Shown here: positions 22,693-36,838 of the stretch, piece by piece | Position numbering within the stretch: position 1 is the stretch's first letter | How the letters are laid out: each line of letters begins with the position of its first letter | Program-made: the position numbers and the translations under genes | The notes under the pieces: model-generated | The model's input: only the letters and a program-made list of their open reading frames with translations | Databases searched by the model: none | Told to the model about the DNA's origin: nothing | Virus record (IMG/VR): IMGVR_UViG_3300020413_000002 | Coordinates: 1 to 36,838 of that record | DNA length: 36,838 nt | Strand: one strand, 5' to 3' | DNA from: a virus | Lineage: Duplodnaviria; Caudoviricetes

Positions 22693-25600
22693 ATGAAAAA
22701 AGCAGAATTTGAACAAAAACTATTAGATAAAGGTGTAAATAAAGATAAAATACCTAAATTATCTAAAAAATGGCAAACTCAATATGGAACATTTGAGGAT
22801 ACAGCTCCTGAATTTAGATTAGCACCTAAACAATATACTCCAAATTATTATGCAACATTAGGAGATGATTACCCTCAAAATAATTTAATATCTACAACTG
22901 ATCAAAATAATACAAAATTGTCAGAATTGTTTAGTTTAAACTATGAAACAAATATACCTACATCGTTAACATCAAGTATACTAAATTTAACTGAACCTAA
23001 TTCAAATTCAGAACAAGCTTTAGCTACAAGAAAAGAAGCATTAGCTGATCCTAATATAAATTTATTAAATAAAACTACAATGACTGGTGGAGAAAATTCA
23101 TATGAAACATATAAACCTTATTATGAATCAATTATTGAAAAATCAAACGAACCTAATTCTACTGGTCAACTTTTTACATGGATAGATAATCTTCCAAGTT
23201 GGGCAGCTAATATTTTTGGTTTACAAACTGCATCAAAAGGATTATTTGATATTGCGTCACAAGCTGTAAGAGGTATAGAAAAAGCAAACTACGATGCTAA
23301 TTTACCTTTTGAAGCTAACATTCCTACAGATTTATCAACTAATTCTCCATTAAAATTAAACTTTAATGGTTTTAGTGAGGCTGGAATAGATGTTGATATT
23401 AGACCATTTGACCCTAAAGAAGTTGAAATTAGAAATGCAGAAATGGAAAAACTTCATAAAGAAGTAGGAGACATGGTTGTTAATAATAGAACATACCAGG
23501 ATGATTTAACAATGGAAGAAATTCAAACTGGTATGTCTGATGTTGATAAATTAAATACTGGAAATAAACTAATAGAAGCTGGTACTGAATTATCTTCTTA
23601 TGCAATTGCTGCAGTTCCAGGATTAGGAATACCATTATCTGCTACAATAAACTTTGGAAGATTATATGATGAGGGTTACCAGGAAACAAGAGATGCTGAA
23701 TGGTCAACTGGTTATGGAATTATAGGTGGAATGTTAGAAACTGCATTAGATAGAATGATAAGTAGTTTACCTAGAAAAATAATGAAAAATCTTAATGTTA
23801 AAACATTACGAGGTTCTATGGGTAAAACAGTAGCTACTATGTTTGGTGTATCTCAAGCATCAGGTATAGGAGAGTTTTTAACAGAATCTTTACAATCTGC
23901 TGCTATACAAAAAAAATCCACAAATGTAATTAACTGGAGACAAGCATTTAATGAAGGTGCTTTAGCTTATATGATTGGTGTTACTGGTGGTAGTGTAGGT
24001 TCTATACAAGGTGTTAGAAATCAATCTAAAATAAGAAGTAGATTAGAATTAGTACAAGCAACAGAACAAGAACAAGTTGATATATTAGAAGATATAAATA
24101 ATGGAAATACAGAAGGCGCAGCACAAAAGTTTTCTGTTATTAGAGATCGATTATTTAAAAAGTTTGCTAAACAAGCTGCTATAAAATTAGACCCTAAAAA
24201 CAATATTGATTTACCTGATAATTTAAAGCCTTGGACATTAGATAGAATACAAGAAGTAAGAGATGCTTTAAATGATACTGAATTAGATAATTGGATTGAT
24301 GAAACTTTTGAAGCTCCTTTAAGAGATGTTGCACGAAAAGCTTTCAAAATGCCTAGCGATAAAACAAGAATAGAATTTAATAGAGCTAGAATAAATTATC
24401 AAAATCGTAAAGATAGTGATTATGATGTAATTGATAACAAAATAGAAGAAGAATCTAAACCAGAAAAAGATGCAATTGATCCTACTGGAGTATGGGATGC
24501 ATATGATTTAGAAAATACTGATGTTATTATTGATAAAGATGCATTTGGTCGTTTTGTTAAAATTGATATTAATAATAAAAATGAAATATTAACCAGGCAA
24601 AGAGTTGAAGAGTTAGCTGATTATAAAGATGGAAGAGTTATTCTTACTGATGAAGCAAAAGATTTACAAAATGTACCTAATTTTGAATTATTTGAAAATA
24701 TAAAAAATACTTCTGTTATTGGAAGTTTAATGAAAACATTAGACGAAGAATGGGATATTCCTGAAGATGTTATCAGGCAACTTTTAATAAATGATACAAG
24801 TAGTGATATAAATGTAACAATGAGTTCTGTTTATAACAACAAGTCATTATGGGATTTAACAAAAGAAATAGCAGATATTGTAAAAAATAATGGTACGCTA
24901 CCAATTGAATTAACTAATGCTGTTAATAATAAATTAAAAAATAATCCTTTCCAGGTTAAACTATTTTTTGATGTATTAAATACTCAAATAAATACAAAAA
25001 AAGATTTAACAAAATTAACTATTGGAGGTTTTGAAGTATTACCTGATAACGAAGCTACTCAAAGATGGGAAGCAATGCGTAATAAAGGATCAAATTTATT
25101 TGAATATGCATTAAGTCAACTTGAAGGTGTATTATTACCACAAGACAAAAATCATCCTACTTATGTTAAAACAGCAAAAGCATATGCAGAAAAATCACAT
25201 GATAAAGATTATAGAAATCATTTAAACCATGTATTTATTTGGAAACGTAAAGAAAGAGTTAAGCAAGTAAGAGAGGCTGTTTCTGATGCTGTTTATCAAG
25301 GTAATATACAATTACTATATAATCAGTTAGATAAATTAGGTATTAACCCTAAAGGCAAGCTAGCACAACTATTAAACCAAGCTACTTCACAATTTCATTT
25401 AGCAGAAAAAGTATTACAAGAATCTAATTCATTAGAAAAAACTAAAGGTAGAGCGCAAGTATCTAGAAGAGCAAAAGAAAATGTTTGGCAATTCCAGGAG
25501 GTACAAGAATTTAGCAGTAAATCTACAAGTCTAAATCAGCTGGCCGCACTTTTTACTACTGCTAAATATTCTAACTTAATTTTTCAAGAAGGTAATGCTA

Positions 25601-28600
25601 TACTTGATATAGGTGGTGGTAAAACTAATTTACTTTTAGATAAAGCTAATGAAAACAATGCAACAGCTTATATATTTGATCCTTATAATATAGTTGATAC
25701 AAGATTATCAAATCAAGAAGTTGTAGATATAGTTAAAAATGGTGGAGTAAATGTAGTTACAATTGCAAATGTATTAAATGTAGTACAAGAAGAATCAGCA
25801 AGAGCGCAAATATTAAAGAGAGCTGATAACGCATTAGCTGATGGTGGTACAATATTTATATCAATTCATAAAGGTAGTAAAGCAGACCAACAAAAAGGTT
25901 CAAGGAAAACTGGTAAAGACCAATTTCAAAATTATAAAAGAGCAAAAGATTATATTAAAGAAATAAGAAAAGTATTACCTAACTATGACATACAACTTGA
26001 CCCTAGTAATGAAGTGTTAACCTTAAAAAGAAGACCACAAGTTGTAACACAAAATGGCACTTTAATAAGAAGAGCAAATGGGATTGTAGGTAAAAAAGTT
26101 GGTAATGATTTATATTTGCATAAATCTTATTTAAATCAATATCCTGAATACCAGGATTTAGTAAAAGAAGCTAAAAACAAAATACCTAAAAACTTTAAGT
26201 ATAATACATTAAAGATTAATACTAAAACTGGAGAAGTTAGATTTGATCAATCTCCTGATTTTGATACAGCTAGTGAACCAAGAGTTGGTAAATATATTAC
26301 AGTTGGTAAACGTGGTAAAGTAACAGAAGGAGAATCTAATGCTGTGTGGCATCATAAATGGTTATGGGTACAAGACAATTATAAAGGATTTAATGTTTAT
26401 GAATCACAAAGTTGGAGCAGAACATGGTTATCAAAGCTTCAAGAAGTTGCTAAAGGGGGAAGTAAAAACGCCTGGCAAGAACAATTAAAATCTGTTGGGT
26501 TAGCTCAAGTAAGTTCATCAGGTAAAAAGGTTACTTCTAAAACTTTAAATAATCAAGTCGATGCTGCTTTAAAGGCTCTTTCTGAAATATCTCCTGAAAC
26601 AACTATTCTTATACATAAGACTCCTGAAGAATTTTTTAATGCTACTGGACAAAATGATATTAATGGATGGACTCAAGATAATGTTATTCATATAAATGAA
26701 ACTTATGCTAGAGAAACAACATTACCTCACGAAGTTTTGCATATTGTATTCAATGGTACATTTGGTTTTGATGCTACTGCTGAACAATTAGCATTAGATG
26801 TATTTGCTGAATTAACACCATTTTTAGATACAGAAACAACAGCATTTCTAGAAGAATTTGCATCTAATTATTCTGAAAATGTTAGAAATACAGAAATGTT
26901 AGCAGAGTTATTTGGAATAATGGCAGCTAATTACCAGGAAGCAAAACCTAAACCTAAACGTGCTATTAATAAATTAATTGATTATGTGGCTAATAAAGTT
27001 GGTTTAGGAAAATTTGTTAAAGGTAATAAAAATAAATATGATTTACTGCAAACTCTTGCTGGTCAAGTTTCTGAAGGCAAAACTATTACTAAAGAACAAA
27101 TACAACAAGCTTTTCAGATTGCACCTAAACAATACAATGTTGTAGATGAAAGTGGTAATGTAGATACTAACCCTATAAAAATTGAACAGTTACAAGATCA
27201 AGCTGTAGCTTTGATGAATGAGTTTATTGAAAAATTAAATTTAGATAACTTAAATCTAACTACAGAACAAAAAGAAACTATTATGATTTATGTTGCTAAA
27301 GAACAAGGTTATGATGCAGAACTAGATAACATAAATATTGATTTAGATTCTTTACCCCAGGAAGCTAAAGATTTATTAGACACTTGGTCAGAAATGGCTA
27401 AAGAAATTGCTGATAGATTAGATGCTGTTGCAGATGCTTTAAATTTACCATTTAGTTTATTAGATGGTTTTTATTTTCCATTACGTCATTACGAAGGTAC
27501 TGGAGAATTTGGAAGTGACATTGAAATAGCATTAGATTTAGCATTAAGAGGTTTTACAAAACGTAAAGGTAAGTTTTACGGAGAGCAAGAACAAGGTGGT
27601 GTTATATTAGACCCAGCTGAACAATTAAGATTATATCTACAAGATGCTTCTAAAATTATTATAATAGGAGAAGCAAAAATTGCTTTACAAGAAAAACTAG
27701 CAGAGAATCCAAAGATAGCAGAAAACATTGGAGCTGTATTAGAAAAATACGAAGATAATCAAGACCTTACTGAATACGAAGAAAGTGTATTAGAACAATA
27801 TACAGATATGCAAAATTTAGAAGAAGCTGGTGTCCCACTAGGTATGCCAAGAGGTGCATATGCTAATTCACAACATTTTGATCGTATAAATGATTATAAA
27901 AAACAAGGTACTGGCGAAGATTTACCTAATGCTCCTCAAAAAATAAAAGAATTTTTAAAAATATTTTCTCCTTCATTAGCTAAAAAACTAGGAGATGCTT
28001 TTGATAATTGGGGTAATATTATTGACCCACATTTTATATTACAACGTATGGATGGAAGTGGAGAAATAGATAGCCAGGGGAACTTGTATGGACAAAATTC
28101 AATACTATGGTCTCGTCTATTACAAGCAGAAGCTTTATCTAGACTAGCAGAAGCTAGCGACAAACAAATGCAAATGGATGTTTTAAAACCTATAAGAGAA
28201 CAAGGCGAAGAAGCTCTTGGAATGATAAACGTTTTATTAAATGAATACATATTAAGTAAAGATAATAAGTTAAATGAAATAGGAGCAGCAAAAGATTCTG
28301 AACAATTTTGGAAAATATCACAAACTTATAAAGGTAGAGATCGAGTTACTAAAGAACAATCTGATGTTATTTTTTGGTATGGTAAACGTGTTATATCAAT
28401 GAAACAAACATTAGGATTAGGTGGTAAATTAAGAAGTAATATTGCCGATGTTAAACGTAGTGAAAGAGCTAAATTTTTAGAAGTTGAACAAAAGCTTGAA
28501 CAAGGATTACCAGTAAGTGATGCAGAGCTAAAAAAACATTTAAGTTATTCTGTTAATGCAGATGAAGGAACAGCATTAAATACTATTGGTAAAATGATGA

Positions 28601-30087
28601 GATGGATTACAGAAAAAAATGCCATTAATACAAAAGACTTTTTAGGTTACTATGACAGTATTGTTTTAATTAATAATAAAGGTGGATATTTTTATGATTT
28701 AGTAAATCAAATGAACGCCTGGGCAGATTATTTAGATTCTATTGGACAAAAAAATAATGCTGCTTGGTGGAGAATGAAAATAGATAGTAATGTTATTGGT
28801 AACGTATTTAAATTTGAAAACCAGTTATTAGATTTTGCTGCAGAAAGAATTATTAAAACTTTAAAAACTGGAGAAGAATCTGGCGACCAGGAAGAAATAA
28901 TTAAACATGGTAGAGGAAGATCAGGTTTTTCTAAATCTGTTATTAATAGATTAAGAAATATGAGTCCACAAGAATTAAGAGCATCAGCTTTAGATGCTGC
29001 AACTCATTTACAAAGAGCAAGAATAAGCGCATTTCTTATAGGTAATGTTGGATGGACATTAACTACACAGCCAACAAGTATAGCATTTACTATTAAACAA
29101 ACTGGATTTAGTTATGTTGCAAAAGCTATTGCTGGAATGATTACTGGTAATAGTTATCAAACAACTAGTAATGTTTCTAAAATTAAAGGACAATTAAAAG
29201 GGATTGATAGATTAGAAGCATCATCAGAGTTTCACGATATGTCTATTAAACAAACTAAACGAGCAAAGTTTAGAAACCAATTGTCTTTCTTTGGTGGTAA
29301 AATGGAAGCAGCTTTAACAGATGTATCTTATAATGCTGGTTATATATATGCTAAACAAGAATTAGGATTAAATGATACTCAAGCTAAAATACATGGAGAT
29401 ATGGTAGCTGCAACAACACAATCTATGTACACAAGAGTTAGTCGTAATACAGCATTAAATTCACAAGTTATGAGATTTATGCAACCATTACAAACATATG
29501 TATTTACTGCAATGTCAAACGCATTAGATACTATGGGAGTAGTAGGAAGAAAACGATCTGTACAAACAAGAATGGCAGAATTTGCAAGATGGATATTAAC
29601 ACAAAGATTATTTGTTGTTTTATGGTCTATGCATTTTGGAGACGATTTAGAAAAAGCATTATTAAATCCAGTATGGGATAGAGCTGGTATAGGAAGTAAT
29701 ATACCTTTATTAGGTAAAAAAATAGATATTAAATTATCTAAAGTAATTCCATGGCAAGATGACAGAACCTGGCAAGATAAAGGTTATGCAGAACAATTTG
29801 TAGATAAAACTACTAAATTATTATTAGGTGTTGCTAACAATGAAGAAAATTGGGAACGAGAAGCTGCACAATATACAATAAGATATATTACGCCTATGAT
29901 AGGTATAGGTGGTACATCTCCAGTTAATAACGCAATAAGAATGTGGGATGCATCTTTAGATGATAATAGATTTGAAGGTATTACTGGATGGAAATATGCT
30001 GATTTTGCAGATGATGATATTGGTGGATGGGCTAATGGATTATTATTTGGAATCAAAGCTGTAGACGCAAAGGAAACTTTTAAATGA
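22693..30087 (+). CDS. giant polyvalent ejection protein (gp16-like) with methyltransferase and zincin domains
   Basis: 2464 aa. Gly-rich membrane-like segment around aa 300-440; ILDIGGG/FDPYN/NVLNVV methyltransferase motifs; GKKVG..LYLH/PDFDT/HHKWLWV domain; PHEVLH...EMLAE zincin. Confidence 0.8.
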   Translation: MKKAEFEQKLLDKGVNKDKIPKLSKKWQTQYGTFEDTAPEFRLAPKQYTPNYYATLGDDYPQNNLISTTDQNNTKLSELFSLNYETNIPTSLTSSILNLTEPNSNSEQALATRKEALADPNINLLNKTTMTGGENSYETYKPYYESIIEKSNEPNSTGQLFTWIDNLPSWAANIFGLQTASKGLFDIASQAVRGIEKANYDANLPFEANIPTDLSTNSPLKLNFNGFSEAGIDVDIRPFDPKEVEIRNAEMEKLHKEVGDMVVNNRTYQDDLTMEEIQTGMSDVDKLNTGNKLIEAGTELSSYAIAAVPGLGIPLSATINFGRLYDEGYQETRDAEWSTGYGIIGGMLETALDRMISSLPRKIMKNLNVKTLRGSMGKTVATMFGVSQASGIGEFLTESLQSAAIQKKSTNVINWRQAFNEGALAYMIGVTGGSVGSIQGVRNQSKIRSRLELVQATEQEQVDILEDINNGNTEGAAQKFSVIRDRLFKKFAKQAAIKLDPKNNIDLPDNLKPWTLDRIQEVRDALNDTELDNWIDETFEAPLRDVARKAFKMPSDKTRIEFNRARINYQNRKDSDYDVIDNKIEEESKPEKDAIDPTGVWDAYDLENTDVIIDKDAFGRFVKIDINNKNEILTRQRVEELADYKDGRVILTDEAKDLQNVPNFELFENIKNTSVIGSLMKTLDEEWDIPEDVIRQLLINDTSSDINVTMSSVYNNKSLWDLTKEIADIVKNNGTLPIELTNAVNNKLKNNPFQVKLFFDVLNTQINTKKDLTKLTIGGFEVLPDNEATQRWEAMRNKGSNLFEYALSQLEGVLLPQDKNHPTYVKTAKAYAEKSHDKDYRNHLNHVFIWKRKERVKQVREAVSDAVYQGNIQLLYNQLDKLGINPKGKLAQLLNQATSQFHLAEKVLQESNSLEKTKGRAQVSRRAKENVWQFQEVQEFSSKSTSLNQLAALFTTAKYSNLIFQEGNAILDIGGGKTNLLLDKANENNATAYIFDPYNIVDTRLSNQEVVDIVKNGGVNVVTIANVLNVVQEESARAQILKRADNALADGGTIFISIHKGSKADQQKGSRKTGKDQFQNYKRAKDYIKEIRKVLPNYDIQLDPSNEVLTLKRRPQVVTQNGTLIRRANGIVGKKVGNDLYLHKSYLNQYPEYQDLVKEAKNKIPKNFKYNTLKINTKTGEVRFDQSPDFDTASEPRVGKYITVGKRGKVTEGESNAVWHHKWLWVQDNYKGFNVYESQSWSRTWLSKLQEVAKGGSKNAWQEQLKSVGLAQVSSSGKKVTSKTLNNQVDAALKALSEISPETTILIHKTPEEFFNATGQNDINGWTQDNVIHINETYARETTLPHEVLHIVFNGTFGFDATAEQLALDVFAELTPFLDTETTAFLEEFASNYSENVRNTEMLAELFGIMAANYQEAKPKPKRAINKLIDYVANKVGLGKFVKGNKNKYDLLQTLAGQVSEGKTITKEQIQQAFQIAPKQYNVVDESGNVDTNPIKIEQLQDQAVALMNEFIEKLNLDNLNLTTEQKETIMIYVAKEQGYDAELDNINIDLDSLPQEAKDLLDTWSEMAKEIADRLDAVADALNLPFSLLDGFYFPLRHYEGTGEFGSDIEIALDLALRGFTKRKGKFYGEQEQGGVILDPAEQLRLYLQDASKIIIIGEAKIALQEKLAENPKIAENIGAVLEKYEDNQDLTEYEESVLEQYTDMQNLEEAGVPLGMPRGAYANSQHFDRINDYKKQGTGEDLPNAPQKIKEFLKIFSPSLAKKLGDAFDNWGNIIDPHFILQRMDGSGEIDSQGNLYGQNSILWSRLLQAEALSRLAEASDKQMQMDVLKPIREQGEEALGMINVLLNEYILSKDNKLNEIGAAKDSEQFWKISQTYKGRDRVTKEQSDVIFWYGKRVISMKQTLGLGGKLRSNIADVKRSERAKFLEVEQKLEQGLPVSDAELKKHLSYSVNADEGTALNTIGKMMRWITEKNAINTKDFLGYYDSIVLINNKGGYFYDLVNQMNAWADYLDSIGQKNNAAWWRMKIDSNVIGNVFKFENQLLDFAAERIIKTLKTGEESGDQEEIIKHGRGRSGFSKSVINRLRNMSPQELRASALDAATHLQRARISAFLIGNVGWTLTTQPTSIAFTIKQTGFSYVAKAIAGMITGNSYQTTSNVSKIKGQLKGIDRLEASSEFHDMSIKQTKRAKFRNQLSFFGGKMEAALTDVSYNAGYIYAKQELGLNDTQAKIHGDMVAATTQSMYTRVSRNTALNSQVMRFMQPLQTYVFTAMSNALDTMGVVGRKRSVQTRMAEFARWILTQRLFVVLWSMHFGDDLEKALLNPVWDRAGIGSNIPLLGKKIDIKLSKVIPWQDDRTWQDKGYAEQFVDKTTKLLLGVANNEENWEREAAQYTIRYITPMIGIGGTSPVNNAIRMWDASLDDNRFEGITGWKYADFADDDIGGWANGLLFGIKAVDAKETFK

Positions 30088-33883: not shown

Positions 33884-34110
33884 TGGAAAATGAATATGGT
33901 TTTATAGAATATCCTGAAGAAACAACTTATTGGGTAGCATATAATGATACATCAGATTGGACTTGTGGTCATGTTACAATATTTGAAGATATGGCATCTC
34001 CTAAAAATATTTTATTAGAAAATACTGATGCACAAGAATTAACAGATTATGCTAATCAATTAGGAATACCAGTTACATATGAACAATTACTAGGAGACGG
34101 AAATGCCTAA
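33883..34110 (+). CDS. small acidic protein, possible fibre chaperone
   Basis: Translationally coupled to both neighbours. Confidence 0.6.
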   Translation: MENEYGFIEYPEETTYWVAYNDTSDWTCGHVTIFEDMASPKNILLENTDAQELTDYANQLGIPVTYEQLLGDGNA

Positions 34111-34363
34111 AGGAGTTAGTATGCGTAAGGTTCATAAGAATCCTACTGGAGGATTATCAGAAAGAGGTCGTAAATATTACAACGCTAAAACTGGTAGTAA
34201 TTTAAAAAGACCAGTTACTGGTAAAGTAAAACGAGGCAGTAAAGCTGCTAAAAGACGTAAATCATTTTGCGCTAGAATGAGTGGTATGAAAGGCGCGTTA
34301 AAAGATAGTAAAGGTAGACCAACAAGAAAAGCATTAGCTTTAAGAAAATGGAAGTGTAGATAA
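34103..34363 (+). CDS. conserved basic phage protein (DUF6321-like)
   Basis: KNPTGGLSERGR...SNLKRPV...RRKSFCARM...ALRKWKC. Confidence 0.75.
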   Translation: MPKGVSMRKVHKNPTGGLSERGRKYYNAKTGSNLKRPVTGKVKRGSKAAKRRKSFCARMSGMKGALKDSKGRPTRKALALRKWKCR

Positions 34364-34640: not shown

Positions 34641-35029
34641 TGAATTCTACAACATCTTATATAGCTACAGCTTCAAGTATGATACCTATACAATATCAAG
34701 GTGGAATAAAATCGGATTATGAAAGACAATGGAAACAATCTGGCTCGACCAGTTCTTTTAATGCCTGGTTATTAAATGATTTAAAACAAAATGGAATTAG
34801 AAGAGGTACTAAATATATAAATATAAACAGTAAAAAAAGTAGAGATAACTATAAAGATGAAATGAATTTTTATAAAAAACAATTAGGTTTATCAGAAGAA
34901 CAAATAACAAGATTATCTATTGGAGATAACATTGATGTTACTCCCAGGAAATCAAAATATTTAATGACAAATCAACAATCTAATAGCGAAGCATTAATAC
35001 AAGCGCTAAAAGAGTTAGGAGTACAATGA
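34640..35029 (+). CDS. hypothetical protein
   Basis: 129-aa soluble ORF between two membrane-protein genes. Confidence 0.7.
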   Translation: MNSTTSYIATASSMIPIQYQGGIKSDYERQWKQSGSTSSFNAWLLNDLKQNGIRRGTKYININSKKSRDNYKDEMNFYKKQLGLSEEQITRLSIGDNIDVTPRKSKYLMTNQQSNSEALIQALKELGVQ

Positions 35030-35460
35030 TACTAGGACTACCATCAGAAGCAGCAGTAGGTTTAATATCTACTTTAGGTGGCTTTTTAATGAAGCAACAA
35101 GCTCAAAGACAAGCCGATCAAAAACAATTATTTGAATTAACATTACAGAAACAAGAAGCTAATAACGATAGTGCAAATCAAGCTTATCAAAGAAAAGCAC
35201 CTTATTTGCGTAAACTTGTAGGCACAGTAGTTATACTAGTAGCTTTTATAGGTGTTTATGTTGTAGCATTTTTTCCACAAATTCCAGTAACAATTGTTGA
35301 ACCAAATCCAACTAAATCTTTTTTAGGTATATTTGAATATGGAGGAGGTAATACAGTTACTATTGCAAACGGAATGGTTATTGCCGATTGGTTTAAATAT
35401 AGTGTAATAAGTATTATTCATTTTCTATTTGGGACTGGTGCAGCAAAAGTTGCAAAATAA
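35026..35460 (+). CDS. multi-pass membrane protein, holin-like
   Basis: Three hydrophobic segments with a coiled-coil between the first two; AGGAG RBS. Confidence 0.65.
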   Translation: MILGLPSEAAVGLISTLGGFLMKQQAQRQADQKQLFELTLQKQEANNDSANQAYQRKAPYLRKLVGTVVILVAFIGVYVVAFFPQIPVTIVEPNPTKSFLGIFEYGGGNTVTIANGMVIADWFKYSVISIIHFLFGTGAAKVAK

Positions 35461-35462
35461 TC

Positions 35463-35490
35463 TTGATAAATAAATACTATTCTGTATAGT
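35463..35490 (+). promoter_or_regulatory. sigma70-type promoter TTGATA-N16-TATAGT
   Basis: Directly after the preceding stop codon; spacer ends in TCTG. Confidence 0.6.
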
Positions 35491-35606
35491 GCTATTTACA
35501 GTTAGAGAATATACTGATCAGAAAACTAATTCCTTATCTAGGCGCGAGTATCGTCTATAAAATTCTCAAATGCTCATTTTTTTTTATCTTTAACCTTTGG
35601 AGTCTT

Positions 35607-35777
35607 ATGTCTTTATATACAATTATTCATGTCGAAACAAATCAAGAAATAACAATAGAATCAAGTCAGTTTGATAGGAATAAAATATTAGAAAACGTAA
35701 GTAAAAAGTTAGGGACAGAGTTTAACAAAAATAAATATGGGGAGTATAAAATACATCCCCAAGTTATGGCTACTTAA
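35607..35777 (+). CDS. 56-aa microprotein MSLYTIIHVETNQEITIES...HPQVMAT (not in ORF track)
   Basis: GGAG RBS, open frame of 57 codons, upstream promoter. Confidence 0.65.
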   Translation: MSLYTIIHVETNQEITIESSQFDRNKILENVSKKLGTEFNKNKYGEYKIHPQVMAT

Positions 35778-35823
35778 TTATTTTTTTATAAGTAGTTCCT
35801 CTGTAATTAAGAATCACTTCCAT
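35770..35823 (-). CDS. 17-aa DUF4278-like peptide MEVILNYRGTTYKKIIK
   Basis: GGAGGT RBS 7 nt before the ATG; LxYRGxxY motif; directly downstream of the riboswitch. Confidence 0.75.
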   Translation of the reverse strand: MEVILNYRGTTYKKIIK

Positions 35824-35844
35824 GATAAATACCTCCATGTTAGT

Positions 35845-35893
35845 GCGTTCCTTCGCAGACTTTCTGCTACTTCCGAGCAATAGCTTGAACGAT
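35845..35893 (-). ncRNA. glutamine-I riboswitch (glnA RNA motif)
   Basis: AUCGUUCA-AGC-UAUU-GCU-CGGAAGUA-GCAGA-AAG-UCUGC-GAAGGAACGC: P1 CGUUC/GAACG, short P2, E-loop and P3 match the glnA-motif consensus. Confidence 0.88.
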
Positions 35894-35902
35894 CTTATAA
35901 CC

Positions 35903-35932
35903 AATATATAAAAATTAGTTGCATATTGTCAA
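35903..35932 (-). promoter_or_regulatory. promoter for the riboswitch unit, TTGACA-N18-TATATT
   Basis: Perfect -35 at 35932-35927; the predicted start lies a few nt before the aptamer. Confidence 0.65.
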
Positions 35933-36133
35933 TTACATTCCTTCTTCTTCTGCTCTAACAGCAATAGGAGTAATAGGAAGTTTATCAACAATGTCTAGTC
36001 TTTTACCATCAAAAGAAAAACTAGATTTTTGAAATGCTAATTCTACAAGACTTATTGCATCTTCAAGAGTCCAGGCATTTTTATCTTTAACGCCAATTAT
36101 TTCTTCATCAGTTTCTATAGTAATTTTAATCAT
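35933..36133 (-). CDS. hypothetical protein (probable start MIKITIE at 36133)
   Basis: GGAG RBS and ATGA overlap with the upstream peptide. Confidence 0.7.
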   Translation of the reverse strand: MIKITIETDEEIIGVKDKNAWTLEDAISLVELAFQKSSFSFDGKRLDIVDKLPITPIAVRAEEEGM

Positions 36134-36213
36134 GCTGTTGCTCCATCTAATGCAGCTATTATTAATAATAACCACCATATTAAACATAATATTATTATAA
36201 TATTTGGTTTCAT
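36130..36213 (-). CDS. 27-aa transmembrane peptide MKPNIIIILCLIWWLLLIIAALDGATA (not in ORF track)
   Basis: ATGA overlaps at both ends. Confidence 0.55.
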   Translation of the reverse strand: MKPNIIIILCLIWWLLLIIAALDGATA

Positions 36214-36838
36214 AAATCCATCATCCAATTTGTACAATTTATTCCATCAATAATTACAGCACATCCAACAGCTGGCTTTTTGCCTTGTTTAGCATATGAC
36301 ATTGCATAAGTATTAAAGTCAATACCACATCCTACTTGACATCCAAATACTTTATGGCTTCTGCCTATTTGCCAATCTACATAAGCTTGTGTATGTAAAT
36401 GACCTTGTACTGTACTCATCATATCAGTTTTACATTTTATGCGTGCTGTTCCAGCTTCTCCATGTATATATTGAACGTTATCAATATCAACTCTATCAGT
36501 AAAATACCAATTAGGAGTTTCTAAAACTTCTTTATAAGATTTAATCCATCTCCTGGGAACATGAGATGTTTGTGATTTTCTCATAACCATTCTATCATGG
36601 TTACCAATAGTAACATAAGCATCGGGAAACATTTTATACCAACGCTTTAGTCGTTCTATTGCTAAATCTAATTCATCTCTGCCTCCCATTCCATCGGGGT
36701 CACTTTCATGGTAAGATGAATAATGATTGTCTATAACGTCTCCAATAAATACAATTATATTAGGATTAACTTTATTATAAACCATACAACAATGATCGAA
36801 ATATTCATCTAAATCAAAAGGTGTATGTAAATCTCCAA
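36210..36838 (-). CDS. 3' part of the calcineurin-like metallophosphoesterase (joins 300..1)
   Basis: GDLH, GDVID, GNHD, YIHGE and QGHLH motifs. Confidence 0.9.
   Translation of the reverse strand, partial: GDLHTPFDLDEYFDHCCMVYNKVNPNIIVFIGDVIDNHYSSYHESDPDGMGGRDELDLAIERLKRWYKMFPDAYVTIGNHDRMVMRKSQTSHVPRRWIKSYKEVLETPNWYFTDRVDIDNVQYIHGEAGTARIKCKTDMMSTVQGHLHTQAYVDWQIGRSHKVFGCQVGCGIDFNTYAMSYAKQGKKPAVGCAVIIDGINCTNWMMDL
36762..36838. repeat. 77-bp terminal direct repeat (copy 2)
   Basis: Identical to 1-77. Confidence 0.95.

Follow-up and report, generated by a model that had tools for sequence, protein, structure and literature searches.

Among the closest described relatives of the locus reported here is the leader of gifB, the gene for IF17, in Synechocystis, for which PMC6212724 postulates an ON model. 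Glutamine binding acts through the G23-C60 linchpin (PMC11477058, PMC6212724), and the pairing of G23 with C60 would melt a helix that otherwise blocks initiation. The same paper calls the way in which type-I glutamine riboswitches switch translation unclear. The gifB reading frame begins with the motif LxYRGxxY. The N-terminal part of IF17 is the DUF4278 domain, reported in PMC6316151 to be dispensable for function and to stabilise the protein; R110, there described as the most important inhibitory arginine of IF17, sits in the IF7-like C-terminal part. Glutamine riboswitches are also known from the phages Melnitz, Mosig and AG-345-P14 (PMC9004378) and from phage S-CREM1 (PMC9964418), and the Melnitz switch was assigned to control of ssrA (PMC9004378).

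The aptamer, the YRG motif and phage occurrence are all already known. A first-pass annotation of the present locus, which expected a non-cyanobacterial host to make it more novel, overstated the point, as phage glutamine riboswitches with non-cyanobacterial marine hosts are in print (PMC9004378) and the aptamer also precedes cellular amt and glnA. What is new is the shortest form, with one repeat, in a podovirus context and with a platform overlapping the coding start, as well as a predicted OFF hairpin that would hide the start codon by pairing codons 1-5 with the aptamer 3' strand and C60. No description of a phage cassette joining a riboswitch to a YRG peptide was found in the literature, and supplements (e.g., Klaehn Table S2 and Figure S3) may list such ORFs.

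The phage and its riboswitch cassette

The window (the whole stretch of DNA analysed) is a complete virus record of 36,838 bp with direct terminal repeats, a podovirus-type genome of 30.6% GC that is contained in marine metagenome runs. Portal, capsid, tail tubular and internal virion genes make up one arm, and DnaB, a replication initiator and an exonuclease lie in the other. A 2464-aa probable internal virion protein (22693-30087, plus strand) has a PHROG 16075 domain at residues 1114-1281 and, by eye, an internal methyltransferase-like stretch; no Pfam family was found in it. Near the cassette lies a gene for a very basic 86-aa protein (34103-34363, plus strand; PHROG 10346/4689, function not assigned), and in relatives several further small Lys/Arg-rich genes cluster there.

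All parts named in the first-pass annotation, a TTGACA promoter, a glnA aptamer, GGAGGT and a 17-codon ORF, were found in place on the minus strand. The predicted sigma-70-type promoter-like site (35903-35932) matches the consensus at 11 of 12 positions, with TTGACA at 35932-35927 and TATATT at 35908-35903 separated by 18 nt, and transcription would probably start near 35897. It is the best of seven such sites in 35300-36300, but with 6.9 expected by chance it proves little by itself. Its position is kept in relatives: of 32 distinct upstream regions, 24 have TTGAY 38-44 nt before P1 of the aptamer (background 0.02), in 22 cases with a C in front, and only 13 have a strict -10. Such CTTGAC-type promoters may resemble alphaproteobacterial ones. 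Downstream of the aptamer, the Shine-Dalgarno sequence GGAGGT (35831-35836) stands 7 nt before the ATG at 35823; an SD-like motif also precedes 29 of the 38 window genes checked. The ORF runs from this ATG to a TAG at 35770 (35770-35823) and encodes MEVILNYRGTTYKKIIK, a peptide with a single YRG repeat and a net charge of +3. A 44-codon frame opening with TTG and passing through the aptamer was rejected as the gene; no SD precedes it, and family members begin at the ATG that follows the SD.

A terminator-like hairpin with a T-rich tail follows the stop (35725-35761, minus strand). The hairpin, at 35761-35738, has a predicted stability of -11.7 kcal/mol (z -2.21; 4 of 200 shuffles were equally stable), and was missed by a simple terminator scan. 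Among distinct loci, 31 of 32 have a hairpin of -8 kcal/mol or below after the stop, a count made without a shuffled control. The unit had been described as complete at about 160 bp; its parts are indeed present, but the hairpin and tail belong to it as well and bring it to about 200-210 bp. Promoter, riboswitch, ORF and terminator form a self-contained, complete gene unit. Hairpin and tail share sequence with the 3' end of an SD-led 56-codon ORF that converges on the peptide gene (35607-35777, plus strand); this ORF contains the terminator hairpin and overlaps the last 8 bases of the peptide gene. Its relatives, at 29-44% identity, occur in 33 loci, of which many repeat a single contig, and the ORF seems to be part of the late arm, outside the cassette. 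An independent contig from another study, 98.4% identical, covers 34900-36838; none of its 31 differences over 1939 nt falls in the aptamer, and one, synonymous, falls in the 17-codon ORF.

The class of the RNA was tested with the Rfam search that the first-pass annotation had proposed. RF01739 matches at 35893-35842 on the minus strand with 51.4 bits (gathering score 35; E 1.3e-8) and is the sole Rfam match in the whole window; the six relatives tested pass as well, at 41-52 bits. The match forms a three-way junction of P1 (35891-35887/35850-35846), P2 (35885-35876) and P3 (35867-35855), with the CGGAAGUA/GAAG E-loop, J2/3 CGGAAGTA (35875-35868) bearing the G22 and G23 equivalents, and the linchpin C60 equivalent at 35845; pocket roles follow PMC11477058. 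The full core is present in 27 of 28 distinct family leaders, and the one miss is cut by a contig end. Of the 31 distinct leaders, 27 were aligned and the four with long inserts in P2 omitted; across the 27 aligned loci compensatory changes occur in all eight pairs of P2 and P3, and P1 is invariant. In three loci (L121, L125 and L141) an insert of about 40 nt in P2 gives a longer stem-loop, with the rest of the cassette unchanged. With this score, core and covariation, the assignment as a glnA-type riboswitch was upheld, and the element is almost certainly a genuine glutamine aptamer.

The first-pass annotation had also seen no cyanophage marker genes, and no cyanophage likeness was found among the best isolate matches listed. 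The nearest isolates are HTVC010P-type pelagiphages, at 34-37% identity by capsid and 28-30% by portal. These values are too low for membership in that group and too distant for naming a host; an Rfam scan of HTVC010P itself gave no match. The same aptamer subtype stands in front of amt and glnA in marine metagenome contigs of cellular origin whose GC is about 30%: scanning of 18 of 36 downstream ORFs gave five Amt and four GlnA matches above cut-off, with weaker matches to PII, GlnII and a TonB receptor, in agreement with environmental riboswitch links noted in PMC6212724. Non-cyanobacterial hosts with both the sensor and PII therefore exist, and the host of this phage is probably not cyanobacterial, as had been suspected.

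Cellular aptamers before amt (L399, L411, L421, L424, L430, L434, L438, L439 and others) are followed by an extra conserved element whose end, CTAAGCATG or a similar sequence, comes 20-35 nt after the aptamer; a strict pattern found it in 29 of 115 loci. Before glnA, a variant comes after tandem aptamers (L406, L417, L458). The element before amt lies beyond the Rfam model and is a candidate expression platform of the OFF type.

The predicted expression platform

Folding of the leader predicts an OFF hairpin at 35809-35852 (minus strand) that reaches well into the coding sequence. In the ligand-free fold, AGGAA at 35852-35848, which includes the P1 3' strand, pairs with TTCTT at 35813-35809 (codons 4-5); CACT at 35845-35842, starting at the C60 equivalent, pairs with AGTG at 35818-35815 (codons 2-3); and CATG at 35839-35836 pairs with the CATG at 35824-35821 that holds the start codon. 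C60 is paired downstream in 30 of 31 predicted ligand-free folds, and the 5' leader thus appears, by prediction, to carry an expression platform coupled to C60. Comparison of loci points the same way. The platform pair beside the AUG is changed on both sides in 10 of the 27 aligned sequences, and leader CACT accompanies codon 3 GTG in six of six cases, whereas other leaders accompany GTT in 16 of 18.

For the bound state, P1 was forced and C60 removed, imitating the G23-C60 linchpin. Opening the SD-AUG region then cost 5.8 rather than 9.1 kcal/mol in the window and, on average, 5.5 rather than 9.6 kcal/mol in the family, so that by nearest-neighbour prediction 5.8 kcal/mol of structure is left in the bound window leader. 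The bound fold was cheaper to open in all 31 family loci, and also in 79 of 93 other viral aptamer loci. Shuffling the codons after the AUG reduced the mean drop to 0.9 kcal/mol, against 4.1 for the native sequences, and made it smaller in 31 of 31. As the bound fold is cheaper to open throughout the family, a translational ON switch is predicted, and this direction is likely. Without ligand, codons 1-5 would be paired to the aptamer 3' strand and C60, hiding the AUG; with glutamine bound, P1 and the G23-C60 linchpin would form and the start region would open, such that high host glutamine would switch on translation of the 17-residue YRG peptide. Codons 1-5 are accordingly predicted to double as RNA structure, and RNA pairing alone can account for their conservation. 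The covarying platform variants, CATTG/CAATG among them, predict rescue mutants for translation control by type-I glutamine riboswitches.

The YRG peptide, its family and its possible targets

The cassette is present in 36 IMG/VR loci, found with a pattern that joins the aptamer end to MEVxLxYRG and so fixes ATGGAAGT and YRG; each encodes 17-20 residues, apart from one that is truncated at the end of its contig. The same pattern gave no match in GTDB genomes, a blastn search of the cassette against isolate phages returned chance matches only, and a related-locus scan with the neighbouring membrane-type gene as query found none. At most loci the unit occupies the meeting point of the replication and structural arms, and it may face either way. 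A tree made for the neighbouring gene requires three orientation changes but, being mostly unresolved, is given no weight here. The peptide is the same in five loci (L124, L132, L135, L144, L152) whose neighbours are unrelated to the genes of this phage. With its varied orientation and its presence among the genes of other phages, the unit behaves as an autonomous cassette. Two copies (L122 and L142), with differing aptamer stems and the same peptide, lie on one 62-kb IMG/VR contig that is possibly two joined genomes.

As the family pattern fixed part of the ORF, a search with the aptamer alone was added. Among 118 viral loci it gave 18 MEV-YRG ORFs, 8 other YRG ORFs and 81 short ORFs without YRG, with six loci lacking an SD-led start and five cut. 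Aptamer-only searches yielded 17 distinct single-YRG peptides of 16-27 residues, with YRGxxY in all 17 and YRGxxYxK in 15. Of complete ORFs behind viral aptamers, 88 of 107 are without any YRG motif and belong to several unrelated families. Separately, short basic ORFs that lack YRG, of about 27-65 aa and belonging to eight or more unrelated families, follow the viral aptamers L001-L120; a helix predicted to sequester the SD precedes each, and some of the aptamers are tandem. An IF7-like origin of these non-YRG peptides was tested and found no support (best match 10.2 bits, with shuffles reaching 10.9; profile-profile probabilities of about 1% or less).

Beyond the codons engaged in the predicted hairpin, the peptide is conserved as a protein. 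All 23 distinct coding sequences have Y12 and K14, neither of which the search pattern required, and over codons 10-17, which were left free, pN/pS is 0.45 (an uncorrected value from related sequences). Arg8 is encoded by five codons, and YRGxxYxK is kept with five Arg and three Gly codons. From the invariance of Y12 and K14, the Arg8 codons and the pN/pS value, the ORF is taken to be translated, as the first-pass annotation had supposed, and selected at the amino-acid level, and the peptide is probably made and functional. This conservation, like the aptamer class, the intact pocket core, the covarying stems and the anatomy of the cassette, is read directly from sequence and comparison. It also bears on the proposal that the RNA is what matters, as a glutamine-binding or regulatory small RNA or as an insulator at the arm junction, with the ORF a passenger serving RNA pairing and stability. 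That codons 1-5 are part of the RNA switch, that most viral aptamers lead unrelated short basic ORFs and that the unit lies mostly at the junction of the arms in either orientation would suit such a role. However, the predicted switch hairpin does not include YRGxxYxK, which is conserved at the amino-acid level through varied Arg and Gly codons, and a conserved switch acting on the AUG is sensible only if the product matters, which together make a passenger ORF quite unlikely.

The claimed likeness of LxYRGxxY to DUF4278/IF17 repeats was borne out by profile comparison. When the YRG columns are disregarded, a profile built from 270 cyanobacterial repeats gives the peptide a score of 4.7, versus a mean of -14.6 for only seven decoys; the peptide falls within the lowest 12% of the cyanobacterial repeats. 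Neither three relatives of 20 aa nor the window frame in which the peptide lies matched the 57-position Pfam model of DUF4278. The peptide carries the DUF4278 repeat motif, but once rather than the two to four times typical of the domain, and it has no IF7-like arginine-rich inhibitory region, its one Arg lying inside the YRG motif. With profile likeness but no Pfam match it is repeat-like and formally outside DUF4278, and it is likely a single-repeat cut-down of this cyanobacterial nitrogen-regulator domain. A beta-hairpin with Arg-Gly at the tip is the fold expected. In an AlphaFold model of a three-repeat DUF4278 stand-in, the first repeat is a hairpin with RG at the turn, at low confidence (pLDDT 64.7, pTM 0.23). 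A Foldseek search with that model returned nothing at E <= 0.001, the best PDB sequence match to the peptide profile had E 0.099, an IF17 homologue had no PDB match, and the ESM Atlas gave no usable match. The 17-mer represents a natural minimal construct for the role of the YRG repeat in DUF4278 and IF17.

That the peptide acts on host nitrogen control is favored, if only slightly. Glutamine synthetase had been named first as its target, and in such a scheme the same ON switch would deliver a minimal IF17-like factor, or a competitor, that binds the enzyme. The arrangement of riboswitch and DUF4278 is that of gifB, the timing at high glutamine fits, and the N-terminal part of IF17 seems to improve inactivation of the enzyme (PMC6316151). 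Yet this part is also the half reported as dispensable for inhibition, which weakens the case for the target, and R110 belongs to the IF7-like part that the one-repeat peptide lacks. Inhibition by inactivating factors is, moreover, described in PMC6212724 as confined to cyanobacteria, and no likeness to cyanophages appears among the listed best isolate matches. Binding to glutamine synthetase is therefore improbable.

Action resembling that of the PII T-loop would be a better candidate than glutamine synthetase. Five of six marine PII sequences found carry YRGAEY in the T-loop, and Arg47 at the loop apex enters the Amt channel (PMC3198391). The peptide shares YRG and the last Tyr with the T-loop consensus E-L-Y-R-G-A-E-Y, but neither the flanks nor Glu50: all six PII sequences have Glu or Gln two before the Tyr, a hydrophobic residue one before it and Glu two after the Gly, where the peptide has Leu, Asn and Thr. 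A complex prediction for a cyanobacterial three-repeat DUF4278 stand-in with Amt of the same genome scored 0.02 against a mark of 0.32, without controls, and counts neither for nor against that pairing. A target of the PII-loop type is suggested only tentatively. Speculatively, a one-repeat peptide would either block its target or only compete with the host's multivalent regulator, and such competition would keep nitrogen uptake running for virion synthesis.

Two further roles were weighed against action on nitrogen control. The charge of the peptide, from +2 to +4 in all complete family members, would suit a basic YRG hairpin that binds RNA or the ribosome and tunes translation at high glutamine, and IF17 stands on a 14-protein shortlist of RNA chaperone candidates from Grad-seq (PMC8136920); on this evidence RNA or ribosome binding has a small chance of being correct. 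The peptide might instead serve a phage process such as lysis timing or replication. Glutamine-linked lysis control was speculated upon for Melnitz (PMC9004378), and a short membrane-type gene related to 35026-35460 is found near the cassette in 28 of 37 loci. The motif, however, derives from a cellular nitrogen-regulator family, and the same peptide accompanies unrelated neighbours in the five loci noted above, so that a role in a phage process is very unlikely.

The reading as a whole, a glutamine-ON unit whose peptide likely acts on host nitrogen control, most likely at a surface bound by the PII T-loop, e.g., on the ammonium transporter, is given about an even chance. It indicates that marine phages may use RNA to sense the nitrogen status of the host and respond by making microproteins overlooked by gene callers. 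In its most specific form, marine phages of heterotrophic hosts would have cut DUF4278 down to one Arg-tipped hairpin mimicking the PII T-loop, made only at high glutamine and overriding the host's shut-down of ammonium uptake. This version is doubtful; were the mimicry true, DUF4278 would gain a function and a 17-residue viral regulator of nitrogen flow would be defined.

Comparison with described riboswitches and nitrogen regulators

A scan of GTDB for the aptamer followed by YRG returned 120 of about 350 stretches, nearly all of them cyanobacterial-type gifB/DUF4278 loci. Three YRG-type repeats lie within the first 75 residues of 91 of 116 cyanobacterial ORFs, and 112 of the 116 have two to four. 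With the gifB leader (PMC6212724) the phage unit shares the aptamer class and core and the same postulated ON mechanism; it differs in being phage-borne and compact. The OFF helices are also placed differently, in that the phage helix is predicted to bury the AUG and reaches codons 1-5 and P1, whereas the cyanobacterial one is mostly CGCCTC...GAGGCG over the SD. The products diverge further: the phage makes 17 aa with one repeat and no IF7-like part, and the cyanobacterial ORFs encode 57-180 aa, mostly with three repeats. Control by a glutamine riboswitch and the motif hydrophobic-x-Y-R-G-x-x-Y are common to the phage peptide and to DUF4278 proteins, including short IF17-like picocyanobacterial ones, but the latter family is recognized by Pfam (PF14105 matched three of three cyanobacterial controls) and the single-repeat peptide is not. 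With the T-loop of PII (GlnB/GlnK) the peptide has in common a YRGxxY hexamer and, by expectation, Arg at a hairpin tip; its flanks are out of register, Glu50 is missing and there is no PII body, and hence no ligand sensing.

Re-examination of one published phage suggests that a small product behind such an aptamer has been passed over. In Melnitz (MZ577097.1; L517:899-1068) the aptamer lies 3' of the tmRNA and directly 5' of an unannotated, SD-led 32-codon ORF without YRG, with a typical sequestering helix, where the record has an antisense hypothetical gene annotated instead. This position makes the assignment to ssrA doubtful, and the Melnitz switch probably controls the missed ORF. An estimated 580 or so IMG/VR stretches carry the exact core pattern, and if the reading proposed here is true, phage glutamine riboswitches, that of Melnitz included, would generally gate overlooked microproteins. 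Like the window phage, the published phages are marine and carry RF01739, and some have non-cyanobacterial hosts; those described as such are T4-like myoviruses, whereas the phage analysed here is of the podovirus type, with a 36.8-kb genome and direct terminal repeats.
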